Part shown: positions 5,032 to 30,769 of the stretch, in pieces
Numbering within the stretch: position 1 is the first letter of the stretch
How the letters are laid out: each line of letters begins with the position of its first letter
DNA from: a virus
Virus genome (UHGV): UHGV-0204578
DNA: 31,092 bases
Reading direction: 5' to 3' (one strand)
Made by a program: the position numbers and the translations under genes
Notes under the pieces: generated by a model
Databases searched by the model: none
What the model was told of the DNA's origin: nothing
Seen by the model: only the letters and a program-made list of their open reading frames with translations

Positions 5032-5447
5032 GCTGCTACCTGTTGCGCCATCTGGTTACGGGTGATCCAGAAGGCAATAACGGTCAGCAGATAAAGGACC
5101 AGGGTAATGGTCCACCCCGTCCAGGCGAGACTGACAACAATCAGCAATCGCATCACCCAGCTGATAAATACGTTTTCTTTTCGGGTAATGGTCTTCAGCA
5201 AAGATGCCCTCAACTCCTGCCAGAGCGGGCCGTTCTTAATTAACGCAGCCAGTGCTACCGGAATTGCCACCCATGTCAGCAGACAGGCTACCCAGACACC
5301 GGACGCTGCCAGTACCGGAAAAATCCCCTGCGGATACACCATTGCTGCGATCAACAGCGCCATCCATAACATCAGAAACAGCCCGCTGATTAATTTCTTT
5401 TTCATTTCAGTTTGCTCCCTGTAAGCACCAGGCCATCTCCCGCGCAC
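5028..5447 (-). CDS. lysA: LysA (lysis timing membrane protein)
   Basis: Multi-TM small protein downstream of the endolysin. The ORF-track start at 5447 is GTG; an alternative ATG at 5405 with an upstream GGGAG avoids overlap with K. Confidence 0.65.
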   Translation of the reverse strand: MRGRWPGAYREQTEMKKKLISGLFLMLWMALLIAAMVYPQGIFPVLAASGVWVACLLTWVAIPVALAALIKNGPLWQELRASLLKTITRKENVFISWVMRLLIVVSLAWTGWTITLVLYLLTVIAFWITRNQMAQQVAA

Positions 5448-9586: not shown

Positions 9587-11353
9587 ATGAACACCACACT
9601 GACACCCGCAGATCTCGATCCCCGTCGGCAGGCCATGCTGCTGTACTTTCAGGGATACCGCGTCGCCCGCATTGCTGAAATGCTGGGCGAGAAAGTTGCA
9701 ACTGTTCACAGCTGGAAAAAACGCGACAAGTGGGGTGACTATGGGCCGCTGGATCAGATGCAGCTCACCACCGCCGCACGCTACTGCCAGCTCATTATGA
9801 AGGAGCACAAAGAAGGGAAAGATTTCAAAGAAATTGACCTGCTGGCGCGCCAGTCGGAGCGCCACGCGCGGATCGGCAAGTTTAACAATGGCGGCAACGA
9901 AGCCGACTTAAACCCTAACGTCGCCAACCGCAACAAAGGCCCACGCCGTCAGCCGGAAAAGAATGTTTTCACCGATGAACAGATTGAGAAGCTGGAAGAA
10001 ATCTTCCATTCCTCCATGTTCAACTACCAGCGCCACTGGTGGGAAGCCGGAAAAACCAACCGCATCCGCAACCTGCTGAAGTCACGCCAGATCGGCGCGA
10101 CCTTCTATTTTGCCCGTGAAGCCCTGATTGACGCCCTGCTTACCGGACGTAACCAGATTTTCCTTTCTGCCAGTAAGGCTCAGGCCCACGTCTTTAAACA
10201 ATACATCATCGACTTCGCCAAAGAAGTCGAGGTGGAGCTGAAAGGCGATCCGATGGTGCTTCCTAACGGAGCCACGCTTTACTTCCTCGGCACCAATGCC
10301 CGCACGGCCCAGAGTTATCACGGCAACCTGTATCTGGATGAATATTTCTGGATACCGAAATTCCAGGAGCTGCGCAAAGTGGCTTCCGGGATGGCTATTC
10401 ACAAAAAATGGCGACAAACCTATTTTTCCACGCCATCCAGCCTGACCCACAGTGCTTATCCGTTCTGGTCCGGTGCGCTGTTCAACCGTGGACGCAACAA
10501 AGCTGACAAGGTGGACATCGACCTGTCCCACAGCAATCTGGCCCCCGGCCTGCTGTGCGCAGACGGGCAATACCGCCAGATAGTCACCGTGGAAGATGCG
10601 GTGCGCGGCGGCTGTAACCTGTTCGACCTCGACCAGCTACGCTTGGAGTACAGCCCGGACGAATACCAGAACCTGCTGATGTGCGAGTTCGTGGACGATC
10701 TCGCGTCCGTGTTCCCGCTCAGCGAACTGCAGGCGTGCATGGTGGACAGCTGGGAAGTCTGGACCGACTTTCATGCACTGGCCCTGCGCCCGTTTGGCTG
10801 GCGCGAAGTGTGGATCGGTTATGACCCGGCAAAAGGTACGCAGAACGGCGACAGCGCCGGATGCGTGGTGGTGGCACCGCCAGCCGTGCCAGGCGGTAAG
10901 TTTCGCATTCTTGAGCGTCACCAGTGGCGCGGGATGGACTTCCGCGCCCAGGCTGACGCCATCAAAAAACTGACCGAACAGTACAACGTGACCTATATCG
11001 GTATCGACTCAACCGGCGTCGGTCACGGGGTTTACGAGAACGTGAAAGCGTTCTTTCCTGCCGTCCGGGAGTTTGTCTACAACCCCAACGTTAAAAACGC
11101 CCTGGTACTCAAGGCCTACGACATTATCAGCCACCGCCGTCTGGAGTTTGACGCCGGACATACCGACATTGCGCAGTCATTCATGGCAATCCGTCGCGCC
11201 ACCACCGCCAGTGGCAACCGCCCGACCTACGAAGCCAGCCGCAGCGAAGAAGCCAGCCATGCCGATCTGGCATGGGCAACCATGCACGCACTGTTTAACG
11301 AACCGCTGCAGGGCGAGTCCGCCAATACCAGCAATATTGTGGAGATTTTTTGA
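9587..11353 (+). CDS. P: Terminase large (ATPase) subunit gpP
   Basis: 588-aa ORF (P2 P is about 590 aa) with strong P2 gpP-like N-terminus (..QAMLLYFQGYRVARIAEMLGEK..TVHSWKKRDKW). Confidence 0.9.
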   Translation: MNTTLTPADLDPRRQAMLLYFQGYRVARIAEMLGEKVATVHSWKKRDKWGDYGPLDQMQLTTAARYCQLIMKEHKEGKDFKEIDLLARQSERHARIGKFNNGGNEADLNPNVANRNKGPRRQPEKNVFTDEQIEKLEEIFHSSMFNYQRHWWEAGKTNRIRNLLKSRQIGATFYFAREALIDALLTGRNQIFLSASKAQAHVFKQYIIDFAKEVEVELKGDPMVLPNGATLYFLGTNARTAQSYHGNLYLDEYFWIPKFQELRKVASGMAIHKKWRQTYFSTPSSLTHSAYPFWSGALFNRGRNKADKVDIDLSHSNLAPGLLCADGQYRQIVTVEDAVRGGCNLFDLDQLRLEYSPDEYQNLLMCEFVDDLASVFPLSELQACMVDSWEVWTDFHALALRPFGWREVWIGYDPAKGTQNGDSAGCVVVAPPAVPGGKFRILERHQWRGMDFRAQADAIKKLTEQYNVTYIGIDSTGVGHGVYENVKAFFPAVREFVYNPNVKNALVLKAYDIISHRRLEFDAGHTDIAQSFMAIRRATTASGNRPTYEASRSEEASHADLAWATMHALFNEPLQGESANTSNIVEIF

Positions 11354-12393
11354 TGAAAGAACATATCGCGCCAGGCGAAACCGTAACTGCAGAAGAAACT
11401 AAAAAACCCGTTGCGGAGGCTTTCAGCTTCGGTGATCCCATTCCTGTACTGGACCGCCGCGAACTGCTGGACTATGTGGAATGCGTACAGATGGATCGCT
11501 GGTATGAGCCGCCCGTCAGCTTTGACGGACTGGCGCGCACCTTCCGCGCCGCCGTGCACCACAGCTCCCCGATCAGTGTTAAGCGTGACATTATCAGCAG
11601 TACCTATATTCCACATCGCCTTCTCAGCCAGCAGGCATTTACTCGTTTTGTGCAGGACTATCTGGTTTTTGGTAACGCCTACCTGGAGAAACGCACGAAC
11701 CGCTTTGGTGAAGTTATTTCGCTGGAGCCTGCACTGGCAAAATACACCCGACGCGGGCTTGACCTTGAAACATACTGGTTTGTGCAATACAGCCTGACGA
11801 CACAGCCGTATCAGTTCACAAAAGGTAACGTCTTCCACCTGATGGAGCCGGATATCAACCAGGAGATTTATGGTCTGCCGGGTTACCTTTCTGCCATTCC
11901 GTCAGCTCTGCTCAACGAATCCGCCACGCTGTTCCGCCGCAAGTATTACATTAACGGCAGCCACGCAGGCTTCATCATGTACATGACCGACGCCGCACAG
12001 AACCAGGAGGATGTGAACAACATCCGCAAGGCAATGAAAAGTGCTAAAGGACCGGGCAACTTCCGCAACCTGTTTATGTACTCGCCTAACGGCAAAAAAG
12101 ATGGCATTCAGATTATCCCGTTGTCGGAAGTCGCGGCGAAGGATGAATTTCTGAACATCAAGAACGTTAGCCGCGATGACATGATGGCGGCTCACCGCGT
12201 ACCGCCGCAAATGATGGGCATCATTCCCAACAACACTGGCGGCTTTGGGGATGTGGAAAAAGCGAGCCGTGTCTTCGTCCGCAATGAACTGATGCCCCTG
12301 CAAAAGCGACTGCAGGAGCTGAATGACTGGCTGGATGAAGAGGTTATCCGTTTTGAAGCCTATGACTTAGGACTTAAGGGCAAACGAAGCTGA
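11350..12393 (+). CDS. Q: Portal protein gpQ
   Basis: 347-aa ORF; extensive similarity to P2 gpQ (EAFSFGDPIPVLDRR..YVEC..WYEPPVSF...); ATGA overlap with P. Confidence 0.9.
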   Translation: MMKEHIAPGETVTAEETKKPVAEAFSFGDPIPVLDRRELLDYVECVQMDRWYEPPVSFDGLARTFRAAVHHSSPISVKRDIISSTYIPHRLLSQQAFTRFVQDYLVFGNAYLEKRTNRFGEVISLEPALAKYTRRGLDLETYWFVQYSLTTQPYQFTKGNVFHLMEPDINQEIYGLPGYLSAIPSALLNESATLFRRKYYINGSHAGFIMYMTDAAQNQEDVNNIRKAMKSAKGPGNFRNLFMYSPNGKKDGIQIIPLSEVAAKDEFLNIKNVSRDDMMAAHRVPPQMMGIIPNNTGGFGDVEKASRVFVRNELMPLQKRLQELNDWLDEEVIRFEAYDLGLKGKRS

Positions 12394-12465: not shown

Positions 12466-12559
12466 CCCTGACATCCCCCCCCCTCCACTAAATGAGGCCG
12501 CCAGCGGGCCAGAGGCTGTGCCGGATTTTGGCCATTTTACCCCGTTGCGCGCGCTCGTA

Positions 12560-12581
12560 TCCCCGCCACGCCTGCCCGCTT
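12560..12581. other. cos (cohesive-end packaging site) of the P2/186-like phage
   Basis: TCCCCGCCACGCCTGCCCGCTT; its reverse complement contains GGCGTGGCGGGGA, matching the P2-family 19-nt cohesive end (GGCGAGGCGGGGAAAGCAC) from memory. Lies just past Q, where cos sits in P2 and 186. The same 22-mer recurs at 24079..24100. Confidence 0.6.
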
Positions 12582-12611: not shown

Positions 12612-12642
12612 CTACGCAAAAGCCCGCCAGTTCTGGCGGGCC
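12612..12642 (-). terminator. Intrinsic terminator downstream of the dinI-like operon
   Basis: Hairpin gcccgccag-ttc-ctggcgggc followed on the minus strand by TTTTG. Confidence 0.5.
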
Positions 12643-12776
12643 TTAGCAAAAACGATCCTCAAACGATCATGCGATCTCATGCGGCATAGACATGCACTAC
12701 AGAGCTAACGCCTCGCAAGGGCTCGTTGTTCAACCTTGCTGACGCCAGAAGCAAGTTCAGACGCCAGCAACGTTTC

Positions 12777-13010
12777 TTAATGCAGCCAGCTGTCGTCTTC
12801 CCACACCTTCTGCATAATTTTCATCACTTGTTTTCTTTCTTCGTCCAGTTGCAGTCCGGTTAGTTCCACACCGTTAGAGCTACCTTTGCGAATGCGAATT
12901 ACCGTTTTGGGATACAGGGGGCGCAGATTGCGGTAAAGCTCGGATTCAAGGGCGTCCAGGGTAGACTGGCTAATCTTCTGCTCTTTATCGATCATTATTT
13001 CAATGCGCAT
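12777..13010 (-). CDS. dinI: DinI-like protein (77 aa)
   Basis: MRIEIMIDK...DALESEL...KVWEDDSWLH resembles E. coli DinI (MRIEVTIAK...ETWESADDWF). ATG at 13010 is preceded by GAGGTGA. The longer track ORF 12777..13082 is an upstream extension. Confidence 0.8.
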   Translation of the reverse strand: MRIEIMIDKEQKISQSTLDALESELYRNLRPLYPKTVIRIRKGSSNGVELTGLQLDEERKQVMKIMQKVWEDDSWLH

Positions 13011-13020
13011 AAAAGTCACC

Positions 13021-13209
13021 TCAGCTGATGACATCCATTGAGCGGTTGTATTCGTGGGTTCTGATTTTTGCCATGAGTTCATCAGTCAATTCAGAAACCC
13101 ACTGCAGAGCCAGCCCCTTCTCTTCATCACTACACTCACTAGCCGCTACAAGCTTAAGAAAAAAATCAATGCGCTGGAGCTTCAAAGACTCCAAAAAATA
13201 GTCCTGCAT
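13021..13209 (-). CDS. Small SOS-regulated protein (62 aa), possibly a 186 Tum-type antirepressor analogue
   Basis: ATG at 13209 with strong RBS (TAGGAGGAAAG-ATG), directly downstream of the LexA box and co-oriented with dinI. The 96-aa track ORF would contain the promoter and LexA box, so the 5' extension is rejected. The Tum analogy is positional only. Confidence 0.5.
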   Translation of the reverse strand: MQDYFLESLKLQRIDFFLKLVAASECSDEEKGLALQWVSELTDELMAKIRTHEYNRSMDVIS

Positions 13210-13252
13210 CTTTCCTCCTATGACACCACACGCAACACTGTATGTATAACCA

Positions 13253-13268
13253 CTGTTTATATTTACAG
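13253..13268 (-). promoter_or_regulatory. LexA operator (SOS box) CTGT-N8-ACAG, with a weaker adjacent half-matching copy at 13238..13253
   Basis: ctgtttatatttacag is a perfect CTG-N10-CAG LexA consensus, about 45 nt upstream of the small-ORF start and overlapping -10-like TATA-rich hexamers. Confidence 0.75.
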
Positions 13269-13283
13269 TATATAATAATCTTA

Positions 13284-13314
13284 CTGATGTAAAACGTTTT
13301 TTTACGTTCATCAG
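13284..13314 (-). terminator. Inverted repeat / possible terminator after gene A
   Basis: ctgatgtaaaacgtttttttacgttcatcag: 6-bp outer and AACGT/ACGTT inner pairing between A stop (13363) and the LexA promoter. Not a canonical terminator (no clean T-run). Confidence 0.3.
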
Positions 13315-13362
13315 CCTGATATGCCTGGTATTATTAAGAGCACGAATTGTTAATCCGCGTAA

Positions 13363-15777
13363 TTAATACAGGTTCCGCCACTGATCATCTTCCTGCAAAC
13401 GCTGGTTCCGATAGAAGATACGCAGGCCTGCTCCTGACGGAATACTGCCTCCGCGAAGGAGTAAATCGACCTCTTTCTCGCTGCCATCAAATCCTCTGGA
13501 CTTCAGCTCATACACGAGCTGCAGTCGCTGATGGTCTGTAATTCGCTGTTTGTAGTCTTTACGCCGTTTCGGTTTCACCAGGCGTAACCTTGCTGCCAGT
13601 TCCCGGCGCTCTTTTTTGCTCATACTGTGCAGGTAATCGTGCAACTCCTTGTCATCCATGCTGGTAATGTCCGTTCTGGGGTCCCCATTAGCTGATTTAT
13701 CTTTCTCCTGTTGGTTCAAATTTTCAGCAAGGGGACAGTTATTGCCACGAGTCCAAGGGGCGCAAGCGCCCTGGTCGGCTGCCGCCTCCTGAACGTCAAC
13801 GGCTTTACGAACCATTTTCCACTTCACTGCATGAGTGCAGATCTTGCCCTCTGCAATGGGTGACCAGATGCCATAAATACGAATGCCGTGATCGCCATAG
13901 GCGGTCGGCTCTTCGTTGATTTCATAAGCGGTTCTGATGAGGTGATATTTACGGGGAACCAGTACGCCGCCCTGCTTCATGATGTAGGTGGCAAAACAAC
14001 CAGCATCAGCAGCAGCCAGGATGGCATCAAGGCGCGGGTTATCCAGTACCGGCGCACCTGCTTTTTTGTCCCCCTGTTGCCTTGCCGCCTGACCAGCCAG
14101 CAATCGCAGTTCACGGTAAGCCTGACGCCCCGGAATGCCAAAGAAGCGGAATTGCTGAACACGATGCAAAGACGCCCAGGCATTCACGTATTCAGCGTTA
14201 TCACGCAGAGATTTACCCGTTTCCTTGCTGATCTCGCCAGCCAGACCACGCCCGTCAATGTTCTTACTGATGTATTTCGCTATGTAGCTTGTCGGCGTTC
14301 CTTTGCGCGGGTTAATCAGCTCAGACTTAAAGCGCGGCCCCGTGTTATTGCCCAGCTCCTCGCGGTCTTCACGGATAGCAAACTTACGCAACAATGCAGT
14401 AATGGCGCGGCGGTCTTTTTTGCGCATGAAACACAACAGGTGCCAGTGAACTGTGCCGTCGTGATGCGGCTCAGCCACCCGCACGCCATACCAGCGCAAC
14501 CCGGCTTTGTGCATCGCCTTACGAAATGCAGCAAACATACCGACCAGATAATCGCTGCTTTGTCTTACCGTCGCATTTGTCCAGGTCGGGTTGGGCCTGC
14601 CGTTATTTAGCGTGGAATGGAAACGTGACGGACAGGTGATGGTGTAGAAAACGGCGCAGTCACCGCGCATTTCCGCGATAAGCTCCAGACCTTTAACACA
14701 GGCCATCATCTCATTGCGGCGATGCGCAGGGTTGCTGCTGCTGGCGTTTACCACATCCTCCATGTCCAGCGTGTCGCCGTCTTCGTTCACCAGTTCATGA
14801 GAACGGAAAAACTCCAGCGACTTACGGCGCTGCTCACGTTTATGCAACACGGCTTCATAGCTGACATAGGGAGATGCTTTTTTGCTGACAAGGCAGACAG
14901 CACGCAACTGCTCTTCCCGCCATTCGCAACGCATCTTCCATAATTTCCGGTACCACCAGTCGGCGCACAACATACGCGCCAGCGAACCCGGAATGAGTTC
15001 ATAGGGCACGGGTTTGCGGCGGTTTCTTTTCCGGCGGAGTTGCTCAAACGCAGGCGGGATAACATCCAGTCGCAGGGTTTCTGCTGCCACCTTTTCCCAT
15101 GTCTTGCGGATTTCTTCCGGCTTAACATCATCGGAGGCGTACAAATCACCACAAGCGGCATCAAGACACATGCTCATATGCGCAGCGACAAGGGTGGACA
15201 GGCGTTTCACCTGATCCTGACTCATTTCAGGCAGGATAAGCAGGCCGTCCAGCCCTTCATGGCTTGCCATAAAACGAAAAGATGCAGATAGCTGGCTGTC
15301 GCGTACATGCTCCAGTCGTTCCAGACATGGCTTAATCGTCTCACGTAAATAGCGGGAATAAGCCTTTGGCTTGCCCAGGCTGCTGAAGTATTCAATACGT
15401 TGCATCAGCGGCTTGCTGATATGGGAAGGCTGGGCGTTGACGTCCGCCAGAATGACCATATCCGGATTAAAACGCTGCTGCTCATGCGCCAGCTTTGCCC
15501 GACTAATGAGCTTATCCTGCTCCATTTCGCGCTGGACAGGATCACGGGATTCATTAAAGAAATAACGCTCCCAGACCTGATCACTCAGTGCCTCTCGGCG
15601 CAGCTGTTCCTGCTCGTTATCGGCAGCGTACAGAGTGATCAGGTTTGAAAGCGTAGAAACCGGCGCAACTTCCGCCGGGTCCAGATAAGGGTTAATGGCC
15701 TTTTTCGGGCTGTTCCATGAGAACGATGCGGCAGCCTCGTTAAAGCCGCAGCAGTTGTTCATATCGGCATGGCTCAT
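13363..15777 (-). CDS. A: Replication initiation protein A (rolling-circle HUH endonuclease, P2 gpA family)
   Basis: 804-aa ORF with HUH-like motif ([12 protein letters not shown]) and a paired-tyrosine motif (YIAKYISK) typical of P2 gpA/phiX174-type initiators. Confidence 0.85.
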
Positions 15778-16631
15778 GCACGTACTCCGTACACGGCAGA
15801 ACTATCCACGCCACGCGAATAATCAAATCCCACCCAGCAGCGCGGCCCGGAAACAGCAATGATTTCTGTTGCTGATTTACCCTCGCCAGCTGCCACACCG
15901 ATGCTGCGTTTTACCTTGATATAGTGGTGAGTAAAATTGCGATACAGCGAACGGATCAGGGATGTGTCACTGTTAGAAACAATGACCGGATGTCCTTCTG
16001 ATGACCGATGTTCAAGAACGGATGCCAGGTGATACTGGTCATCTTCAGTGAAGCCGTCAGCGTGATAGCCGGAAAACGTACCGTCATAAGGCGGATCGCA
16101 ATACACCACATCCCCCGCCTTCAACACCGCCAACGTTTCATCAAAGCTGGCGCAGATAAACGTTGCTCGCTGGGCCTTTTCTGCAAATGCGCGAATTTCT
16201 TTTTCAGGGAAATACGGATTTTTATAATTACCGTAGGGAATGTTGAAATGCCCGCTCTTGTTATAGCGACATAACCCACGGTAACCGTGACGATTGAGAT
16301 ACAGGAAATATACCGCTTTCATGAAATCAGTAATTTCAGTGGAGTAATTAAACTCCTGCCTTATGTTGTAATAAGCCACCTCCCTGTTTGCTTCCTCAAA
16401 TAAAACTCTGGCGCGAGATATAAACGATTCACAATCAGCGGCAACCTTTTTATAGAGGTTGATTAAATCAGGATTAATATCCGCAACCAGATAGCTGGGG
16501 TAATCCGTCTCCATCATCACAGCACAGGAACCCGCGAAAGGTTCAACCAGTCGCGGGCCAGCAGGAAGGTGTTTTTTCAGTTCGGACATAATGGCGGTTT
16601 TATTTCCCGCCCATTTCAGGATGGTGCTCAT
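15774..16631 (-). CDS. dam: DNA adenine methyltransferase (Dam family)
   Basis: Motifs ILKWAGNK (AdoMet binding) and DPPY (catalytic). ATG at 16631 is preceded by CAGGAGGTG; stop overlaps the A start (ATGA). The track ORF to 16703 is an upstream extension. Confidence 0.85.
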
Positions 16632-16930
16632 ACAGCACCTCCTGCAATAACATATCCTAAAGCTTCTAATGGGGTTAATGGGCGAATTGATAGCATCACC
16701 CATTGTTCTGAAACTGACATGACGTCATTAACCGGAAGCACATGAGAGATAACAGCGGCCCATTCCCTACCCGTAAATACGCCATGCTTCCATTCGCAAA
16801 GAGAAAGAACATCACCAACTTTATAGCCACGATCGTCTTTACGAAGTTCAGCCGTCTTTTGACCTGCAACCACAGCGTTGAAATACTTAGGTGCAATTTT
16901 TAATTGATGGATACGCACTGCCCTTGTCAT
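16628..16930 (-). CDS. Small ASCH/PUA-like (DUF3850-type) protein
   Basis: 100-aa product from ATG at 16930 (CGGAGGTGCTGT-ATG); family assignment from memory of P2-like early-region proteins, not verified. ATGA-coupled to dam. Confidence 0.55.
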
Positions 16931-19127: not shown

Positions 19128-19760
19128 ATGATACAGGTAAAAGCTGGCGAGAATACAGGGGGAAGAGAGGCTATCCATAGACTAATGGCAGCCTATGATT
19201 TCAAGTCCAGACAGCAACTTTGCGATCACTTAGGCGCATCAAAAAGCACTATGGCAAACAGATACTTAAGAGATAGCTTTCCCGCAGAGTGGGTGATTCA
19301 GTGCGCCTTGGAAACAGGAGTTTCTTTACTGTGGCTAACCACCGGACAAGGCGAACCAGGTTCAAACATTGACCCTAAAAAAAATATCAATTCTGTGAAC
19401 TCCAGCAGGGTTAAACCTCTTTCTGAGCTTGTATCTCCTGAAATTGACAAGGCAACTCTCAACGGTGGTTTATTGGTCGATGCTGGAAAAGCAATCATTG
19501 ATAGCAGCATACTCCCCTCAGACTCAAGCAACCTGCTGCTGGTGAGTACTTCTGGTGATTCTTATTTAATAGATCGCAACCAAACACCACCAGTAAATGG
19601 TACGTGGTTAGTGGACATCGACGGGATAAAAAGCATTGTAAAATTGACACGACTCCCGGGAAACAGATTAGTAGTGCATCAGGATGATTCATCGTTTGAG
19701 TGCGAACTGGATGACATTGAGGTAATAGGTCGCGCACTGAAAATCATTAAGAGCCTTTGA
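19128..19760 (+). CDS. cI: CI-type immunity repressor (186 CI-like)
   Basis: 210-aa ORF with N-terminal HTH-like segment, divergent from apl and immediately upstream of int, the 186 cI-int arrangement. Confidence 0.7.
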   Translation: MIQVKAGENTGGREAIHRLMAAYDFKSRQQLCDHLGASKSTMANRYLRDSFPAEWVIQCALETGVSLLWLTTGQGEPGSNIDPKKNINSVNSSRVKPLSELVSPEIDKATLNGGLLVDAGKAIIDSSILPSDSSNLLLVSTSGDSYLIDRNQTPPVNGTWLVDIDGIKSIVKLTRLPGNRLVVHQDDSSFECELDDIEVIGRALKIIKSL

Positions 19761-19761
19761 T

Positions 19762-20787
19762 ATGACCATCAGAAAACAGCCGAACGGAAAGTGGTTATGT
19801 GAATGCTACCCAAACGGGAGAGATGGCAAACGCGTACGCAAACAATTTGCGACGAAAGGCGAAGCCATTGCGTTTGAGAATTTCACCATGGATGAGGTAA
19901 ACAAGAAACCTTGGCTGGGAGAAAAGGAAGATCGGCGACAACTGTCAGAAGTGATTGAGCAATGGTATTCCCTGTACGGTCAGACACTCGCTGACCCTAA
20001 GCGATTAATGGCTAAGTTAAAAATCATTTGTAATGGACTTGGCGATCCCATCGCTTCTGAATTGACAGCAGGTGATTTCACAAAGTACCGGGAAGCCAGA
20101 TTAAAAGGTGAGGTCAAAAACGAAGATGGCGTGCTCATGTCACCGGTTAAGCCCAGAACGGTGAACCTTGAACAGCGTAACCTATCCTCAGTTTTTGGCA
20201 CACTGAAAAAGCTGGGACATTGGTCTGCACCCAACCCCCTCGCCGGTCTGCCAACTTTCAAAATTGCAGAAGGTGAACTGGCGTTCCTTGCTGCTGATGA
20301 AATCAAACGCCTGCTTGACGCATGTGCTGAATCTCAAAGTCCCAGTCTGCTAATGATTGCCAAGATTTGCCTGGCTACCGGGGCAAGATGGAGCGAAGCC
20401 GAAAACCTGCAAGGTAACCAGATATCAAAGTATCGAATTACCTATACCAAAACAAAAGGAAAGAAAAACCGAACTGTTCCTATTTCTCAGGAACTGTATG
20501 AAGAATTACCCAAAAACAGAGGAAAGTTATTCACACCATGCCGAAAGGCTTTTGAGCGTGCGGTAAAACGAGCTGGAATTGAACTACCTGAAGGTCAATG
20601 TACCCACGTTCTGCGCCACACTTTCGCCAGCCACTTTATGATGAACGGCGGAAACATTTTGGTATTGAGGGATATTTTAGGACACGCTGATATTAAAATG
20701 ACCATGATTTATGCCCATTTTGCACCTGATCATCTGGAAGATGCCGTTACCAAAAATCCACTTCATAACCTCAACTGGCATCGCTAA
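19762..20787 (+). CDS. int: Tyrosine integrase (P2/186 Int family)
   Basis: 341-aa ORF with C-terminal catalytic region HVLRHTFASHFMMNGGNILVLRDILGHADIKMTMIYAH (R..H..R..Y signature); reads toward the att core. Confidence 0.9.
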   Translation: MTIRKQPNGKWLCECYPNGRDGKRVRKQFATKGEAIAFENFTMDEVNKKPWLGEKEDRRQLSEVIEQWYSLYGQTLADPKRLMAKLKIICNGLGDPIASELTAGDFTKYREARLKGEVKNEDGVLMSPVKPRTVNLEQRNLSSVFGTLKKLGHWSAPNPLAGLPTFKIAEGELAFLAADEIKRLLDACAESQSPSLLMIAKICLATGARWSEAENLQGNQISKYRITYTKTKGKKNRTVPISQELYEELPKNRGKLFTPCRKAFERAVKRAGIELPEGQCTHVLRHTFASHFMMNGGNILVLRDILGHADIKMTMIYAHFAPDHLEDAVTKNPLHNLNWHR

Positions 20788-21133: not shown

Positions 21134-22327
21134 GTGGCACGGACAACACGCCCCCTTACCAACACCGAAGTTCTGCGCGCTAAGGCGTTAGAGAAGGATC
21201 TAACGCTGCACGATGGCGACGGGCTTTTCCTGATAGTGAAAACTAGTGGCAAAAAGCTCTGGCGCTTTCGCTATCAACGTCCGGTAACAAAGCAGCGGAC
21301 AATGATGGGGCTCGGTGCCTTCCCCGCCCTATCGCTTGCTGATGCCCGAGGATTAAGAGCGGATTACCTTGCCTTATTAGCCAACGGACTCGACCCGCAA
21401 ATTCAAACTGAAGTTGCAGAGGAACAGCAGCAAATAGCACTGGACAGTATTTTTTCAACGGTCGCCGCTAACTGGTTCCAGCTCAAAAGCAAAAGCGTTA
21501 CCCCTGATTACGCAAAAGACATTTGGCGCTCACTGGAGAAAGATGTATTCCCTGCCATCGGTGAGATCCCCGTTCAGCAAATCAAAGCACGGACACTGGT
21601 TGAAGCTCTTGAGCCAATCAAAGCTCGTGGGGCGCTTGAGACTGTACGTCGACTGGTGCAGCGCATTAACGAGATAATGATTTATGCCGTAAACACTGGC
21701 CTGATTGATGCTAATCCAGCATCAGGTGTTGGGATGGCCTTTGAGAAGCCCAAAAAACAAAACATGCCGACGCTTCGGCCAGAAGAGTTACCAAAACTCA
21801 TGCGTTCTTTGGTGATGTCAAATCTCTCTGTTTCGACTCGCTGTTTAATTGAATGGCAACTCCTGACGCTTGTGCGCCCTTCTGAGGCCTCCGGTGCTCG
21901 TTGGGCAGAAATCGATCTCGATGCAAAGCTTTGGACTATTCCAGCCGAACGGATGAAGGCGAAACGTGAGCACATAGTTCCTCTCTCAACTCAGGCATTA
22001 GAGATTCTCGAAGTGATGAAACCAATCAGCGCTCACCGTGAACATGTTTTTCCCAGTAGGAATGATCCAAAACAATCCATGAATAGCCAAACAGCTAATG
22101 CAGCTTTGAAGCGTATAGGATATGGAGGAAAATTAGTTGCACACGGTTTACGATCTATTGCAAGTACTACATTGAATGAAGCGGGCTTTAATTCAGATGT
22201 GATAGAAGCGGCATTAGCTCATACAGATAAAAATGAGGTAAGAAGAGCATATAACCGCTCTATCTATTTAAAGCAAAGAATAGGCATGATGGAATGGTGG
22301 GGTGAAAAAGTTTATAATAAAAACTGA
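21134..22327 (+). CDS. int: P4-family integrase (IntA-like tyrosine recombinase)
   Basis: 397-aa ORF, GTG start with AAGGAG 8 nt upstream; N-terminus MARTTRPLTNTEV...DGDGLFLIVKTSGKKLWRFRY typical of P4/CP4-57 integrases; sits about 185 bp after the ssrA 3' end as intA does in E. coli K-12. Confidence 0.9.
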   Translation: MARTTRPLTNTEVLRAKALEKDLTLHDGDGLFLIVKTSGKKLWRFRYQRPVTKQRTMMGLGAFPALSLADARGLRADYLALLANGLDPQIQTEVAEEQQQIALDSIFSTVAANWFQLKSKSVTPDYAKDIWRSLEKDVFPAIGEIPVQQIKARTLVEALEPIKARGALETVRRLVQRINEIMIYAVNTGLIDANPASGVGMAFEKPKKQNMPTLRPEELPKLMRSLVMSNLSVSTRCLIEWQLLTLVRPSEASGARWAEIDLDAKLWTIPAERMKAKREHIVPLSTQALEILEVMKPISAHREHVFPSRNDPKQSMNSQTANAALKRIGYGGKLVAHGLRSIASTTLNEAGFNSDVIEAALAHTDKNEVRRAYNRSIYLKQRIGMMEWWGEKVYNKN

Positions 22328-22366
22328 AAAAAAAATAAAAGCTCATTCTTATGAGCTTTTATTTTC
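22328..22366. terminator. Bidirectional intrinsic terminator between int and the cargo operon
   Basis: Hairpin aaaagctcat-tctt-atgagctttt flanked by an A-run on one side and a T-run on the other. Confidence 0.65.
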
Positions 22367-22964
22367 CTGCATTACCTTTCGAATTATCAGCATCCTGTTT
22401 ATTTTGAAAAGTCATAAAGGTATTATACCAACTAGAAACACGGAATATAGCAAGAACAGCTGCTAATGCAGAGAATACTGAGTAAATAAATATAAAGTAA
22501 GCAAAAAAACTAAATATTAATAACGCATACTTATAGAAAACACCTAAATAATAATACATAAAAGCATTATTTATGAGAATACTACTATAGGCCTTGGTAA
22601 CCAAGGCCGTAATAATAGTTAGTAATTGCAACAATATAAAATGGACAAAAGTTGCATTGACTGACATATAAGGAGAATATTCTACTTCCCCACTTTCACT
22701 TTTTTCATCACCAGTTATTATTTTTTTAAAGGCCTCATCACCAATAGCTATCCACATAGCAAAACCACCTAATGAAAAGCCCAGAAGGTTCGGCATCAAT
22801 GACAGGATATCATTCCACCACCCCTGATGAGACCAAGATGGATAAAGAATCACTGTCATTAAAAAAGCACACCAAAAATAGCGACTTTTAAACACAGCCC
22901 CAGCGCCACCATAGATTTTCCAGTATCTAGCCAATGCACTGGTTGATTCTTTTTCTTCACTCAT
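22359..22964 (-). CDS. Uncharacterised integral membrane protein (201 aa, about 4 TM helices); downstream gene of cargo cassette
   Basis: Hydrophobic segments YFWCAFLMTVILYPSW, ILSLMPNLLGFSLGGFAMWIAIG, VHFILLQLLTIITALV, YALLIFSFFAYFIFIYSVFSALAAVLAIF; start overlaps the upstream gene stop (TAATG); AT-rich. Confidence 0.7.
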   Translation of the reverse strand: MSEEKESTSALARYWKIYGGAGAVFKSRYFWCAFLMTVILYPSWSHQGWWNDILSLMPNLLGFSLGGFAMWIAIGDEAFKKIITGDEKSESGEVEYSPYMSVNATFVHFILLQLLTIITALVTKAYSSILINNAFMYYYLGVFYKYALLIFSFFAYFIFIYSVFSALAAVLAIFRVSSWYNTFMTFQNKQDADNSKGNAGK

Positions 22965-23893
22965 TACTTTCTCAGAAGCCTCTTAAATTCATCTGCTAAT
23001 GATTTTGCCCTTAATAACAATAGCTCAGAAACCGATGTTACGTCAGAATCATATGGTTCGACCCTTTGAAGTGGTACGTCACTTGAGGCATGAACCTCTA
23101 CTAATCCCGCCTCATTAATCCTGCGTATACTAACTTCACCATTTCTCGAAGCAATAAGAGCATCCTGTTTTAACTCACCATCAGGTTTAATTTCCTGACC
23201 TCGCTCAGATTTATATGTTTTATCCTCTTCAATAACCCCAATACGCTTGAAGCGCTTTTGCATAACATTTTCTGCAGAAGCGAGATCATCCGGATTAGGA
23301 CGTCGAGTGACCATATTTATACACGTAATACCTTTTAAAGAAAGCATACGTTCTACACTATCTGGCTCAGTCAATATTGTAACATTAACCTTTCCAAATT
23401 TCTCTATAATTCTCTCGTGAGAAAATATCCCATTCAGAAAGCTTTCTATTTGTCTTGGTGTAAGATGCCGGCTCTTGTCCTGCATTTCGTAAACTAAAAG
23501 ATGACTTGCGGGTAGAAAAACAAAAGAGAATCTAGCTACATTTGGTTTTAAATTATCAGGTATATTTATTCTTTCCTTTTCCTCATCTGAAGCTATATCT
23601 TTCTTTACGATATCGAACCAGTCGCCATTAACGTCAATATCTGTATACTTTAGAATTTCCCCCTCAAAAGGTTCACTAATTACCTGACCTTTCTTATAAG
23701 GATAAAAATATGATAAAGTTGCGAATGAGTCTCCTCTTAAATTAACATTGCTCGCATTTTTTCTTGCCATCCTGAATAACTCGACATACTTTTCTGGCGA
23801 GTGGGGGTGCATGGATATATTCACAGCCCCGTAAGTTAATTTTTTTGCCCTTGCCATTTTTATCTTTGTTCCCTTATTTCGTGAAAGAATCAT
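22964..23893 (-). CDS. Uncharacterised soluble protein (309 aa; 297 aa if start is ATG at 23857); upstream gene of cargo cassette
   Basis: Intact AT-rich ORF with no TM segments and no catalytic motif I recognise (no Walker A, no GS..DxD nucleotidyltransferase motif, no HxH); translationally coupled to the membrane protein gene. Confidence 0.7.
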   Translation of the reverse strand: MILSRNKGTKIKMARAKKLTYGAVNISMHPHSPEKYVELFRMARKNASNVNLRGDSFATLSYFYPYKKGQVISEPFEGEILKYTDIDVNGDWFDIVKKDIASDEEKERINIPDNLKPNVARFSFVFLPASHLLVYEMQDKSRHLTPRQIESFLNGIFSHERIIEKFGKVNVTILTEPDSVERMLSLKGITCINMVTRRPNPDDLASAENVMQKRFKRIGVIEEDKTYKSERGQEIKPDGELKQDALIASRNGEVSIRRINEAGLVEVHASSDVPLQRVEPYDSDVTSVSELLLLRAKSLADEFKRLLRK

Positions 23894-24078
23894 ATATACA
23901 TGAAAGGCTTAGGGAAAACTATGTCTTAACGCACACCATCTAATAGCCAAAGGAAATAAAAATACAATTCATTATTCAAAATGGGAATATTATTTCCTCC
24001 ACGGATAATGCTCATTGGTTCCACTACCAGATTCGTAAAAATTAAAAAAACAACATCCAAGAACAGCGCGCAATGCTC

Positions 24079-24100
24079 TCCCCGCCACGCCTGCCCGCTT
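24079..24100. other. cos site of the P4-type satellite, identical 22-mer to the helper cos
   Basis: TCCCCGCCACGCCTGCCCGCTT identical to 12560..12581; flanks also similar (ttttaatgcaggtgcatga versus ttttcatgcacctgcatga). Located between cargo and psu, where P4 cos lies. Confidence 0.6.
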
Positions 24101-24264
24101 CTTGGGGCGCTTTTAATGCAGGTGCATGAAGTGGCTCAGGCCGCGCCGCGACTGGCGCTGGTCGGGAGTACAGGAGCGGGAAAACGCATGCAAAACCATG
24201 CACCCTTTGGATGCATGGCTTAATTCGGGAAAAATGGCGGGAATTACGAGGATTTTTTGACAGG

Positions 24265-24831
24265 TTACGGCGCGGCCAGTTCGGCGCGTCGACGGGTGTA
24301 AATCATGCTCTGTGCAGGGGTGAATTTTTCACGATTATCATCCCGCGAAGGCGCGTCAGGCCTGTATCCGATGGCCGTTAAAATATCGCTATCCTGTGCC
24401 GAATAATTAATTTCATTTCCTGCGGCCAGCCAGACGGAAAGAGCTTCTCGCAGGTATGCTACTGAACGGTCAAGCGCACGGTTTTTTATCATCGTGGGCT
24501 GGTTCTTAATTCCCATCAGCTCGGGTGCCAGTGCGGCGGCCAGCTCCGCGCCGTTCTGCTGCATAAAATCGTACAGCCGGTTACGGATGCTGATGCGCTG
24601 CACCTCCTCATGCGAGGAAATGTAGCGACCGGCGGCCTGATTAATCTCCCATTTTTTTACGTCAATAATATCTCGCAGCGTCTGTAATCTGCGGGAACCT
24701 GATGCGTTGTCATCCAGCAATAATTCCTGATATTCCTGTTCTGCGGCGGTCAGTTCGGCTTTACAGTTCAGCCACGCCGTTTTGTTCGTCTGACAGGCAT
24801 CGAACGCCTGCTGTAAGGTCAGGGTGGTCAC
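24265..24831 (-). CDS. psu: Psu (polarity suppression / capsid decoration protein)
   Basis: 188-aa ORF (GTG start) with strong similarity to P4 Psu (..LQQAFD.CQ.NK.AWL..K.EL.AAEQEY..NQAAGRYI.SHE.VQ.ISIR.RL.DFMQQ..). Confidence 0.85.
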   Translation of the reverse strand: MTTLTLQQAFDACQTNKTAWLNCKAELTAAEQEYQELLLDDNASGSRRLQTLRDIIDVKKWEINQAAGRYISSHEEVQRISIRNRLYDFMQQNGAELAAALAPELMGIKNQPTMIKNRALDRSVAYLREALSVWLAAGNEINYSAQDSDILTAIGYRPDAPSRDDNREKFTPAQSMIYTRRRAELAAP

Positions 24832-24847
24832 GGGTTGTCTCTCCTGA

Positions 24848-25093
24848 TTAATGGTGGAACGGTGAGCTGTAGCAGCTTTTTACCCGGCGGGGTGTAACGG
24901 GTACTGTCGGCACCGGTGCGGGTTTCTCATCGACGACCGGGGAACGGATCACCTCAAAGATGGACTCATGCGTTTTGAATGTCGCCGAGCAGTGCACATT
25001 CTGGCACTGGAGGTAACTCTCTTTGACGCTGTCAGACATATAGCGGCTGGTGCGAACGTGGGCCGCTGTGCGACAGAAAGGGCAGCGCATCAT
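24848..25093 (-). CDS. delta: Delta/Ogr-family zinc-finger late-gene activator
   Basis: MMRCPFCRTAAHVRTSRYMSD...YLQCQNVHCSATF mirrors P2 Ogr (CPLCQHAAHARTSRY...HQCQNVNCSATF). Confidence 0.85.
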   Translation of the reverse strand: MMRCPFCRTAAHVRTSRYMSDSVKESYLQCQNVHCSATFKTHESIFEVIRSPVVDEKPAPVPTVPVTPRRVKSCYSSPFHH

Positions 25094-25827
25094 GACAGTA
25101 ACCCTCGTGCTTTCAGATCGGCTTCACGTTCCTGCATTTTTTCCTGCCAGACTTTTCGCTGACCGGGCGTGGCCGCAACGTCATGCTCCATATGTGGCAG
25201 CGTGGAGGCCGCCAGCCCTGTTTTAAAAAGCACTGGTTCATCAGTCAGACGGATATTGCAGTCCTTCACCGCCTGCTCAAGCCATGATTTCACCTTATGC
25301 ATAACGGCATGCTCTGGTTCGACATAGCCCTGATGCCCGATGGTGTTGGCAAGCGGATTTTCTTTAACCAATATGCTGAGTTTCATTGCTCTAACGAGTG
25401 CGCCGCAGGTTTCACGTAGGGCGGCATCGAGTTCATGCTCTGCATACTGGCTGAGTACGCCGTGATGCGCCTGACGGTATGTTCTGGCCGTGCTGTCACA
25501 GGCTCCCCGAAGGCTGTCCAGCTCGAAAGACAGCACCTCAGCCATGTTGTCACATTCCAGTGCCAGCTCCCGCCGTGCCACGCGCGCAATATGGCGTTGT
25601 TTCAGCTCGTCGGTAATGACAGCACCACCGGCACGAAAGGCGGTGCGCCATGCACCGGAATCATTGCCGTTTTCCTGCTCCAGTTCAGTTTTTTGCGTTT
25701 TCACCTGGCTGATGGCCGTCGTGGTTTCGTCCATGCGTCGGGCATTGGTCAGATGTGCTTCTCTGGCCGTCTCAAGACTTTCTATTGCGGGTTTAAGGTA
25801 GTCGGGAATAACAGCGGTCTGAGTCAT
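25090..25827 (-). CDS. sid: Sid (capsid size determination external scaffold)
   Basis: 245 aa from ATG at 25827 (GAGGAGA RBS); position and length as P4 sid, upstream of delta and psu; helical, Gln/Glu-rich. The track ORF start at 25893 is an upstream extension. Confidence 0.75.
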   Translation of the reverse strand: MTQTAVIPDYLKPAIESLETAREAHLTNARRMDETTTAISQVKTQKTELEQENGNDSGAWRTAFRAGGAVITDELKQRHIARVARRELALECDNMAEVLSFELDSLRGACDSTARTYRQAHHGVLSQYAEHELDAALRETCGALVRAMKLSILVKENPLANTIGHQGYVEPEHAVMHKVKSWLEQAVKDCNIRLTDEPVLFKTGLAASTLPHMEHDVAATPGQRKVWQEKMQEREADLKARGLLS

Positions 25828-25899
25828 GTCGGGTCTCCTCTTCGTTTCAATCTGAGGAGATTCTGCCGCGCCGGACACAACAACACGATTCATTGCCGT

Positions 25900-25917
25900 T
25901 GTGGCAAAAATGGCACA
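25900..25917 (-). promoter_or_regulatory. Psid late promoter activator site (TGT-N12-ACA)
   Basis: tgtggcaaaaatggcaca centred about 81 bp upstream of the sid ATG; same dyad type as the helper late promoters. Confidence 0.6.
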
Positions 25918-26004
25918 AACAGACCTTAAAACCCGGCTGGCCAGAGAAAGGTCTCATGAAAACATTACTCACCGTTTGTTTTTTTACTTATAACTATTCA
26001 CTAC

Positions 26005-26114
26005 TGTTCACTGAAAAGAAAAAGATAAGTAATACAGTAAGTTAAAGGGTGAACAGTTGAAGGTCTGACTGTTCACCGTCTGTTCACCACTGTTCACCTT
26101 TCAGTTTGTTCAGC
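26005..26114. repeat. Iteron cluster (TGTTCACC type), candidate alpha-binding ori/crr element
   Basis: Exact TGTTCACC at 26070, 26081 and 26091 (10 to 11 bp spacing), inverted GGTGAACA at 26048, degenerate copies at 26005 and 26107. TGTTCACC is the P4 type I iteron. Confidence 0.65.
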
Positions 26115-26367
26115 CAGTCAGCCACTTAGACTTTTTGGCGATTAAAAAACAGAAGTATATAAACAAAAGTAATCAGCAATGGGCCACCGGTTTGCCAACG
26201 TTTGCCAAAAAACGGCCAACGTTTGCCACTGTATAAAAATCGCTCTGTTGTGTGGTGGAGTACTACAAAATGACTTGTTGCCCTGAGGGAAAATATTCAC
26301 AAAATAGAGAGCTACCCGAAGCCGGACGGACACGACCGGCACTGTATGGACTTTGTGAGGTAGCCCG

Positions 26368-26634
26368 ATGCACACCGTTTTTTCTTCCCCGTCTTCTGCC
26401 CCTGCCGCGCCGCTGATGCCGGTTTCTGATACCGTTCACGAACGCTTTATCCGTCTGCCCGAAGTGATGCATCTGTGCGGCCTGTCCCGCTCGACCATTT
26501 ACGACCTCATCAGCCGGGAAGCCTTCCCGAAACAAATCTCCCTCGGCGGAAAAAATGTGGCGTGGGCGCAGTCTGAAATCACTGCATGGATGGCGGATCG
26601 CATTGCCGAACGTAACCGGGGCTATGACGCATGA
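26368..26634 (+). CDS. alpA: AlpA/Vis-family small DNA-binding regulator
   Basis: 88-aa ORF with the AlpA-type HTH segment [49 protein letters not shown]. Confidence 0.75.
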
Positions 26635-26761
26635 TGATGATCGCTCAGCAAACAGCCCCTTTTTCTGGCTTGCTTCTTTTCGCCATTTCCAGGTATAGTT
26701 TTCCCGCTGTCGCAAAATCGACAGCCGGGCGTGGAAACCCGAGCAACTCGAAGGCGACACC

Positions 26762-26785
26762 AGACGCGCCATGCGTCTTTTTTTG
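26762..26785 (+). terminator. Intrinsic terminator inside an untranslated leader
   Basis: agacgc-gccat-gcgtct hairpin followed by TTTTTTT, in the roughly 400-bp gap between alpA and the next RBS-bearing start. Confidence 0.55.
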
Positions 26786-27032
26786 TGTCGCAACTAACGC
26801 CACAGAGCGCCAGATAATGGCGTGGTGTGCGGATCGTCGTGCAGACGTCACTTTGTGTCTCCTGTCCGCAATCGCATATCATGCTGTCATGTCAATGGTA
26901 GCTCAGGCGGGGCAGCCCTCGGGCTGGCCGGTATTCTTCGAGGCCGGTATTTCCACCCCCGTCTGGGCTATCGCCACTGAGCGTGGAAACTCCGGCGATA
27001 GCAATAATTTGCTACTCGAAGGAGGTTGCCTT

Positions 27033-27227
27033 ATGGCTACGACCCTCACCCCGTCACAGCCTCAGTTTGTCTTTGTGTTTGCCGCCGTCCGTCGTGCAGA
27101 CCGTAAGCCCCGTATCTGTATGCTCCGCACCGTTGCCGGTGACGAGCACGCCGCACGTCTTTCCCTCGTTCGCGATTACGTCCTCTCGTTCGCTGGCCGT
27201 CTGCCGGTTGCGGAGGTGCGCGCATGA
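27033..27227 (+). CDS. Hypothetical small protein (64 aa)
   Basis: ATG at 27033 preceded by AAGGAGG (7-nt spacing). The upstream in-frame 134 codons of track ORF 26631..27227 contain the terminator, look non-protein-like and are rejected. Confidence 0.5.
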
Positions 27228-27451
27228 GACACACCACCATTACCGCCCGTGACCTCGAATGCCTTGAGCACATGCGCAACGTCGGCCAGCTCGTCAATGA
27301 GCTGATGCAGGTGCAGGACTGTACGGCCGTTCGTCGTGACCCTGCTCAGCAGTCACAGCTCACCTCCGTGATTTACCTTATGACCGCCCAGCTCGACGGC
27401 GTGGTTGAGCGCTGCAATCAGCACTGGCTGACCGGGGAGGGCAACGTATGA
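27224..27451 (+). CDS. Hypothetical small protein (75 aa)
   Basis: ATGA-coupled to the previous ORF, GGAGGTG RBS. Confidence 0.55.
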
Positions 27452-27768
27452 AACAGCCATTACCGCCCGTATTACGCGCCGCGCTGTATCGTCGCGCCGT
27501 GGCCTGTGCATGGCTGACGGTGTGCGAATGCCAGCACCGCTACCCGCACCTCACCCTCGACGCGCTGGAAAGCGCCATTGCCGCCGAGCTGGAGGGCTTC
27601 TATCTGCGCCAGCACGGCGAGGAAAAGGGCCGTCAGATTGCCTGTGCATTACTGGAAGATTTAATGGAAGCCGGGCCACTGAAAGCCGCGCCGTCACTGT
27701 CCTTTCTCGGGCTCGCGGTGATGGATGAACTTTGCGCCCGTCACATCACATCGCCTGTACTGCACTGA
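27448..27768 (+). CDS. Hypothetical protein (106 aa)
   Basis: ATGA-coupled to the previous ORF, directly upstream of alpha. Confidence 0.55.
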
Positions 27769-27782
27769 GGGAGAAAATAACA

Positions 27783-30116: not shown

Positions 30117-30125
30117 CCTACCTCA

Positions 30126-30149
30126 GACCGGCAACAGCCGGTCTTTTCC
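30126..30149 (+). terminator. Intrinsic terminator after alpha
   Basis: agaccggc-aaca-gccggtct followed by TTTTCC. Confidence 0.6.
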
Positions 30150-30168
30150 TTTCTGGCCATTGCCACAG

Positions 30169-30455
30169 GGTGAACAATCCACTGCTCACCCTTCACCGTA
30201 TATTCACCCTGTATCACCATGAAATTATTGATAAAAAACCAGAGGTGAACAGTGTGAACAGTAAAACCTGAAAAAACTTTTTATCACCCCTCACATCGCC
30301 TGAGCGGACGGTTCCAGAACGAGCACAAATCACAAAGGTGAAGAGTCGACTGTTCACTCTTCACCAACCATTCACCACTTATCATTATGATATTAAAAAG
30401 AAAAAAAGAGAGGTGAACAGTGTGAACAGTTAAATGCAAAAAAACTTTTTTTTAA
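30169..30455. repeat. Two tandem ~168-bp repeats, each carrying TGTTCACC-type iterons (crr-like cis replication region)
   Basis: Units starting near 30169 and 30337 are clearly homologous; GAGGTGAACAGTGTGAACAGT occurs in both (30242 and 30410), with several TTCACC/GGTGAA half-iterons. Confidence 0.65.
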
Positions 30456-30514
30456 TGCGTTCCATTCAAAAAAACAGGTTTGCAAAACCAAAGTAAACAC
30501 TACAGCAAATCGCC

Positions 30515-30536
30515 ATTGGTATACGCTTAGGTATAC
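30515..30536. repeat. Third copy of the 22-bp GGTATAC-containing arm motif near the satellite right end
   Basis: ATTGGTATACGCTTAGGTATAC; one mismatch to 21061..21082. Confidence 0.5.
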
Positions 30537-30735
30537 AACTGAAAGTTGAATTGATAAATATTCAATAAAATCAAAATATTGAGAAAAATTTTCAGACTCC
30601 GCCAGCCCAATCATGATTGGACGGTGTAAGGACAACACCAACAAAAACAGGAAGTTAGAAGTCTCAGCAAAACACCGACCAGACGGTGAGGAGACATAAA
30701 AGGATACGCAAAGGAGCCGCGGCTCCTGGTAACAT

Positions 30736-30760: not shown

Positions 30761-30769
30761 CGTTGATGG

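Follow-up and report, generated by a model that had tools for sequence, protein, structure and literature searches.

A split tumA/tumB module as the likely SOS induction operon of a P2-like prophage of the 186/Fels-2 type

The virus genome UHGV-0204578, analyzed here over its whole stretch of 31,092 nucleotides (the window), holds a P2-like (Peduoviridae) prophage in an orientation reversed relative to the standard P2 map. On the minus strand of this prophage, a small two-gene operon behind a LexA operator is the candidate SOS induction module considered here. Its first gene, of the tumA type and predicted to encode an antirepressor of 62 amino acids (aa), lies at 13021-13209 and is separated by an intergenic region of 150 nt from its upstream neighbor, the replication gene A (13363-15777, minus strand; Pfam Phage_GPA, E=1.5e-127). 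As an earlier sequence-only reading of this DNA had stated, the 62-aa open reading frame (ORF) has a strong ribosome-binding site: the Shine-Dalgarno sequence AGGAGG (13214-13219, minus strand) stands 4 nt ahead of the ATG. The second gene, of the tumB type (12777-13010, minus strand), encodes a DinI-family protein of 77 aa and starts 10 nt past the stop codon of the 62-aa ORF, a gap that is the same in 80 of 80 loci. RNA folding places an intrinsic terminator of the operon at 12618-12644 (minus strand), between the stop codon of the dinI-like gene and cos. It has a GC-rich stem of 11 bp, GGCCCGCCAG-AACT-CTGGCGGGC, and TTTT after it as the U run. A terminator scan of the window made no call at 12618-12644 and instead picked a hairpin over the tumA stop codon. 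This hairpin, GTCATCAGCTGAGGTGAC followed by TTTTATG (13015-13032, minus strand), covers both the tumA stop codon and the Shine-Dalgarno sequence of the dinI-like gene (GAGGTG). It could couple translation of the dinI-like gene to that of tumA, or attenuate the dinI-like gene; phage PSP3 has no counterpart of it.

The module sits after gene A and about 50 nt from a cos-like cohesive-end site, GGCGTGGCGGGGATACGAG (12554-12572, minus strand), which is identical at 15 of 19 positions to the annotated cos of coliphage 186, GGCGTGGCGGGGAAAGCAT. This gene order is that of 186, PSP3 and Fels-2, so that the cos-proximal placement after gene A that had been proposed by comparison with 186 tum is borne out. 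P2 itself does carry the old and tin genes at this locus, in the arrangement orf91-tin-old. A defense or toxin-antitoxin reading prompted by these P2 genes was considered and rejected; PADLOC gave no match, and the Tum homology is clear.

The two proteins behave differently in family searches. In the Pfam profile search the DinI-like ORF has a match and the 62-aa ORF has none; the 62-aa protein also belongs to no family in NCBIfam or PADLOC, and a sequence search of the Protein Data Bank (PDB) returned nothing for it at E<=10. Against the PHROG profiles it matches phrog_698 (3.6e-38), phrog_8554 (2.4e-8) and phrog_1993 (2.2e-3). TumA of PSP3 defines phrog_1993 (E=2.7e-32), and the N-terminal half of 186 Tum matches phrog_1993 (1.4e-22), phrog_8554 (1.4e-11) and phrog_698 (2.7e-5). 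Residues 7-44 of 186 Tum align in register with positions 7-44 of phrog_698, and an alignment has the common core C-x5-(L/I)A(L/I)-x-(W/L)(V/I)(S/A)E(L/I). Judged by these profile matches, the 62-aa protein is remotely homologous to the N-terminal half of 186 Tum, which holds the antirepressor. The AlphaFold2 model of the protein is a two-helix hairpin (helices 2-23 and 28-61, mean pLDDT 90), for which a Foldseek search of the PDB found generic helical hairpins only (best E=1.2) and no significant structural neighbor.

The tumA gene is under strong purifying selection, with a ratio of nonsynonymous to synonymous substitution rates (dN/dS) of 0.06-0.12 and dS near 1 between the window and SopEPhi, MLG42 and ST437phi4.1. 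Its Shine-Dalgarno sequence and ATG (13209) are invariant across relatives, and the insertions and deletions upstream of the ATG are not multiples of three. An extended ORF of 96 aa, starting at 13311, was rejected. It would cross the promoter and the operator, where relatives have frame-breaking insertions and deletions. Because these changes break the frame upstream of an invariant Shine-Dalgarno sequence and ATG, the 96-aa version given by some annotation pipelines is a start-site artifact.

The DinI homologue that had been reported after the small ORF is confirmed by Pfam DinI (PF06183, E=6.6e-23; 81.3 bits vs a cutoff of 24.2). The 77-aa protein is 41% identical to residues 71-145 of 186 Tum (E=3e-24), and homology of its DinI domain to the C-terminal half of Tum is also found through phrog_189 (positions 71-148). 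It scores below the cutoff of NCBIfam NF007893, the equivalog model for the chromosomal DinI of E. coli (42.7 bits vs 111), and is a phage paralogue of the TumB type and not host dinI. A conserved acidic C-terminal helix (VWEDDSW) is seen in its sequence, and dN/dS of 0.03-0.10 against the same three relatives indicates strong purifying selection on the gene. In 2 of 80 IMG/VR loci (L013-L092) the dinI-like gene is shortened to 17 and 36 aa beside an identical and intact tumA, which suggests that the DinI-like partner is dispensable.

A survey of 322 loci of Tum-type genes, IMG/VR loci included, places the module among four types. The window type has split tumA and dinI genes (81/81), with a double LexA box in 74 of the 81. 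The 186 type is fused (77/78), the PSP3 type is split in 49 loci and has tumA alone in 30, and the ESSI type has tumA alone; each of these three types has a single box. In 186, the SOS operon driven by p95 was described by Lamont 1989, Brumby 1996 and Shearwin 1998, as cited in PMC3121763 and PMC7708051. The annotated p95 promoter lies after gene A, at the same position as in the window, has its -10 hexamer TACTGT inside a LexA site, and drives tum. The window shares with 186 the LexA box over the presumed -10, homologous antirepressor and DinI domains, and a non-cleaved 186-type CI as the presumed target. However, 186 has a single fused Tum of 146 aa, with internal starts that yield DinI-like products, whereas the window has two separate ORFs; 186 has one LexA box against the double box of the window, and an additional downstream gene, orf97. 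The TumA domain of the window is only ~18% identical to its 186 counterpart.

In Fels-2 and PSP3, tum is divided in two by a stop codon (Lemire 2011, PMC3121763; for these systems also Bunny, Liu and Roth 2002, cited therein), and in PSP3 the antirepressor activity resides in the upstream gene (Lemire 2011, PMC3121763). The PSP3 annotation describes tumA as 'similar to 5' end 186 tum; UV induction of prophage' and tumB as 'similar to dinI and 3' end of 186 tum'. PSP3 has the same two-gene architecture as the window and a close TumB. However, its TumA belongs to another sequence class (phrog_1993, 14% identity to the window), it has a single LexA box, and the CI partnering its TumA has an N-terminal domain of a different class from that of the window. 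Fels-2 (STM2728/STM2726.1) has the same double operator, with 98% identity to the window in TumA (STM2728) and 100% in TumB, and its DinI-family gene after the small ORF carries a note of similarity to PSP3 TumB. By sequence comparison, the window module thus belongs with PSP3 and Fels-2, in which tumA and tumB are split, and not with the fused Tum of 186. Every sequence-level feature of the Tum system that could be tested is found in the window.

Functional evidence is available for DuoHS, a P2-like prophage in E. coli HS. In the Phollow study (Nat Microbiol 2025, PMC12055606), an in-frame Δtum was built in DuoHS with primers listed in supplement file 3 of that paper. The reverse complement of NHR24 is GTGGTGTCATAGGAGGAAAGATG followed by TGA, and NHR28 reads ATG-TGA-GGTGACTTTTATGCGCATTG. 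Both map to the window without a mismatch, at 13207-13229 and 13001-13023. Because the primers match exactly, the tum of DuoHS is the 62-aa ORF, removed from ATG to TGA with the dinI-like gene left intact. The corresponding E. coli HS protein, ECHS_RS04495, is identical to the window protein at 61 of 62 residues, the difference being T52S. Both Δtum and lexA(Ind-) abolish mitomycin C-induced lysis and virion foci in DuoHS (PMC12055606), and the SOS reporter still responds in the Δtum strain (PMC12055606). TumB is not sufficient for induction. The experiments with mitomycin C and lexA(Ind-) hosts that the sequence-only reading had proposed have in effect already been carried out, in essence, on the DuoHS copy, and the Tum-like antirepressor role that it had suggested for the small ORF is supported by this requirement for induction together with the PHROG cross-matches. 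DuoHS shares with the window the ribosome-binding site, the start, the stop and the downstream dinI-like gene, and differs from it in having additional cargo genes between dinI and portal. Its CI (L012, 18701-19270) is only 44% identical to that of the window, with an N-terminal helix-turn-helix domain far more similar than the C-terminal domain.

These results bear on an alternative in which the operon serves as an accessory ('moron') unit under SOS control: the DinI-like protein would modulate host RecA, the small ORF would be unrelated or would encode a leader peptide with no function, and induction would take place in another way. Such a unit fits the observation that only the DinI-like ORF has a Pfam match, the small ORF being devoid of matches in Pfam, NCBIfam, PADLOC and the PDB; its gene is labeled 'hypothetical protein' in RefSeq in every record among the matches listed. 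However, the small ORF is homologous to the N-terminal domain of Tum and is constrained at dN/dS 0.06-0.12, and its exact deletion abolishes induction in E. coli HS although the dinI-like gene is intact. Furthermore, tumA occurs without any DinI gene in ESSI-type and many PSP3-type loci, and it stays intact beside the two truncated dinI-like genes. The accessory unit is therefore highly unlikely.

The perfect LexA operator that had been reported upstream of the small ORF is present exactly there. LexA box 1, CTGTAAATATAAACAG (13253-13268, minus strand), is a perfect CTGT-N8-ACAG, and a pattern search found CTGTTTATATTTACAG at these positions as the sole CTGT-N8-ACAG in the whole window. The bare pattern is not significant by itself, being expected 0.45 times per window by chance and occurring at least once in 37 of 100 shuffles. 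A search with the 20-mer LexA consensus TACTGTATATATATACAGTA, allowing up to 3 mismatches, gave a single site in the window (13251-13270, 17/20 identical to the consensus) with 0.00 expected. The weaker adjacent copy is likewise present, as box 2, GTGGTTATACATACAG (13238-13253, minus strand), with a perfect right half-site. The two 16-bp boxes have one base pair in common and form the composite 31-mer CTGTAAATATAAACAGTGGTTATACATACAG, which runs on the minus strand from 13268 to 13238 and occurs once, with 0.00 expected.

LexA box 1 is kept in Fels-2, SopEPhi, MLG42, ST437phi4.1 and DuoHS, and the double box in Fels-2, SopEPhi, MLG42, ST437phi4.1 and 813R9. The exact double-box pattern is present in 73 of the 80 IMG/VR loci with an identical TumA, and six of the other seven are a single point change away from it. 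In box 2 of the relatives the half-sites stay constant while the 8-nt spacer varies. Across the survey of 322 loci, a LexA box lies within 130 nt upstream of nearly every Tum-type gene, and this conservation is, among the comparative data, the best support for a functional box.

The promoter that the operator would overlap is placed by analogy with the annotated p95 of 186 (TTCACA-18 nt-TACTGT). The putative -35 hexamer TTTACA (13288-13293, minus strand) lies 17 nt upstream of the putative -10 hexamer TACTGT (13265-13270, minus strand), and the latter overlaps LexA box 1; TATACT, 2 nt upstream of TACTGT, is an alternative -10. The earlier suggestion that the operator overlaps a promoter directly upstream of tumA thus agrees with the 186 arrangement, the promoter being putative. 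An imperfect palindrome, CTGATGAACGTAAAAAAACGTTTTACATCAG (13285-13316, minus strand), lies between the gene A stop codon and the tumA promoter, and its 3' arm includes the putative -35 hexamer. It is kept in Fels-2, and SopEPhi and MLG42 have other sequence in its place; the LexA boxes of Gifsy prophages likewise have terminator-like palindromes ahead of them (PMC3121763). Upstream of the p95 -35 hexamer, 186 (L001, 4486-4510) and PSP3 (L004, 5041-5060) carry CATGTACATACAGTG and CATGAACATACAGC, which resemble the right half of window box 2 (TTATACATACAGTG, 13238-13250); the likeness may reflect a relic half-site or be coincidental.

If the LexA-box match were a chance AT-rich palindrome, the operon would be controlled by CI, by Apl or by read-through from gene A. 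Such an explanation draws on the 0.45 chance occurrences expected for the bare pattern and on a promoter scan that found no consensus promoter. However, neither the 20-mer nor the 31-mer composite is expected by chance (0.00 for each), LexA boxes stand upstream of all four Tum types despite unalignable flanks, and box 2 of the relatives keeps its half-sites constant around a variable spacer. Moreover, the near-identical DuoHS is not induced in a lexA(Ind-) background. A chance match is thus the least probable of the alternatives weighed here, and extremely improbable.

The closest likeness of the double operator is the cea operator of ColE1, CTGTATATAAAACCAGTGGTTATATGTACAG, which immediately precedes the start codon of colicin E1 and is identical to the window operator at 26 of 31 positions. 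In both, two 16-bp boxes have a single base pair in common and meet at the same CAGTGG junction, and the pattern CTGT-N9-CAGTGG-N8-ACAG matches both 13238-13268 of the window and 5063-5093 of ColE1. Unlike ColE1, the window operator governs a prophage antirepressor and not a colicin, and the flanks are unrelated. Box 1 of the window overlaps the presumed -10, whereas both boxes of ColE1 are downstream of TTGACA-17 nt-TAGCTT. In colicin operators, both overlapping SOS boxes are held by LexA dimers (PMC2994835; Lu and Chak 1996 cited therein). By analogy, both boxes of the window promoter would be occupied by LexA. Among the types sampled, the colicin-type double operator is found in the Fels-2-type lineage only, in contrast to the 186, PSP3 and ESSI-2 types.

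The presumed target of TumA is the immunity repressor CI, encoded at 19128-19760 (plus strand). It combines Phage_CI_repr (PF07022) with Phage_CI_C (PF16452), has no Peptidase_S24 domain match in Pfam, and matches the crystal structure of 186 CI (PDB 2fjr) over its full length (E=1.3e-25). This is the makeup of a 186-type CI, which joins a helix-turn-helix N-terminal domain to a wheel-forming C-terminal one. Together with a Cox/Apl-like gene (19008-18760), CII (18727-18218) and the integrase (19762-20787), it makes up a complete immunity region of the 186 type.

Textbooks treat repressor autocleavage as the default in SOS-inducible prophages. A lambda-like route, in which RecA stimulates autocleavage of the repressor and the LexA-controlled operon only fine-tunes the response, would follow this default and would accord with the presence of a putatively RecA-binding DinI homologue. 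However, a 186-type CI without Peptidase_S24 does not support autocleavage, and in DuoHS the Δtum deletion alone blocks induction though the SOS reporter responds. Autocleavage is therefore even less probable than the accessory unit.

The 80 loci with a 62/62-identical TumA have 42 distinct CIs, whose C-terminal domains fall into 16 clusters at 70% identity. These C-terminal domains vary in length from 117 to 230 residues and are as little as 21% identical; CI variants of ~310 aa, in which the C-terminal region is far longer, likewise adjoin an identical TumA. The N-terminal domains, in contrast, are at least 50% identical to each other, with the invariant signature GG..I.R..AY.F...L..S.ST.A.R..RD.FP..W..C..ETG..WL..G. 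They were taken by motif-anchored extraction, as a global MAFFT alignment of all CIs was scrambled by the variants with long C-terminal domains. Across 279 loci of the four Tum types, the Tum class follows the helix 3-helix 4 signature of the CI N-terminal domain with one recombinant exception. The signature is SKST..RD.FPA(D/E)W in the window and ESSI types, A(A/S)S(S/T)L..RG..SYDF in the 186 type, and a third pattern in the PSP3 type. Homology to Tum and this co-association point to direct binding of TumA to CI, probably through the DNA-binding N-terminal domain, a contact that is favored rather than proven. The literature searched gave nothing on which CI domain Tum binds.

Taken together, these findings make it very probable that the operon is what triggers SOS induction in this P2-like prophage of the 186/Fels-2 type, with tumA and tumB as separate genes. 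In the lysogen, host LexA bound to the double operator would cover the -10 and the transcription start region and silence the operon. DNA damage would activate RecA and bring about self-cleavage of LexA, allowing the operon to be transcribed. TumA, the 62-aa helical hairpin, would then bind the 186-type CI, most likely at its conserved N-terminal helix-turn-helix domain, and stop it from binding DNA. 186 Tum binds CI and reversibly blocks its binding to the operator (Shearwin 1998, as cited in PMC3121763). CI itself would be incapable of autocleavage, and its inactivation by TumA would release the early lytic promoter and induce the prophage. The co-transcribed TumB probably acts on RecA filaments and thereby tunes the SOS signal.

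Several observations weigh against this reading. Pairwise BLASTP gave no alignment between the 62-aa protein and 186 Tum, so that the homology is carried by profiles; of the comparison with Tum that the sequence-only reading had called for, the profile part stood, with in-register cross-matches, and the pairwise part did not. A strict sigma-70 consensus scan found 0 promoter sites. The left half-site of box 2 is degenerate (GTGG), and the occupancy of this box by LexA is proposed from the ColE1 analogy. The induction phenotypes come from the DuoHS copy and not from the prophage of the window. The Mantel correlations of Tum with CI (r=0.73 for the N-terminal and 0.65 for the C-terminal domain; partial 0.53 and 0.35) are both inflated by shared ancestry, which confounds the association, and do not cleanly separate the two domains. 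Finally, the lone mismatch among the 279 loci is one IMG/VR locus (within L100-L179) in which a PSP3-type TumA (MVGEHFRRTQQKW...) stands beside a CI of the 186 type; the N-terminal domain of this CI is the same as in CIs partnering 186-type Tum. This recombinant may be a non-inducible prophage or may be evidence of looser specificity.

A LexA-repressed dinI homologue with a small antirepressor (gfoA/gftA) acting against a non-cleavable repressor is also found in Gifsy-1/2/3 (PMC3121763). However, these are lambdoid phages with a different repressor family and with dinI first, whereas the window has the antirepressor followed by dinI in a P2-like phage; the Gifsy-type dinI-gfoA/gftA order in a lambdoid prophage is not found in the window.

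Around the module, portal Q (11350-12393) and terminase P (9587-11353) lie on the plus strand. A gene for a D12-class Dam methyltransferase (15774-16703, minus strand) is directly upstream of gene A and overlaps it; such a gene is also found there in Fels-2 and DuoHS, and P2 and 186 have other genes at this place. A P4-like satellite (21134-30806) immediately adjoins the prophage integrase, which explains why the prophage had been termed a helper in the sequence-only reading. The satellite encodes a P4-type integrase (21134-22327), Psu (24265-24831), an Ash-family protein (26631-27227) and a primase-helicase (27732-30116). Its cargo position (22359-23893) is occupied by a DUF4747 protein and a 201-aa ORF, a pair for which PADLOC gave no match.

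The module is the already known DNA-damage switch of 186/Fels-2-type P2-like prophages, real but ordinary. What is added here is the colicin-type double operator in the Fels-2-type lineage and the occurrence of an invariant TumA beside at least 16 divergent CI C-terminal domains. It is possible, though somewhat short of likely, that the invariant TumA is a 'universal' antirepressor for the 186-type CI class, acting through the N-terminal domain, and that the double operator raises or delays the SOS threshold relative to the single-box operator of 186. If the former is true, Fels-2-type prophages sharing a host would induce one another in trans even when their CI C-terminal domains, and possibly their immunities, differ. 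Specific, modest hypotheses on induction thresholds and prophage cross-talk thus follow from the double box and from the constancy of TumA. The practical value of the finding lies in annotation, since the 62-aa gene, whose PHROG families are of 'unknown function', can be named a TumA-type antirepressor. The module, which occurs in 1144 of 5426 complete E. coli genomes, sets the timing of the lytic switch after DNA damage, including damage by antibiotics, in a very common family of E. coli, Salmonella and Klebsiella prophages.

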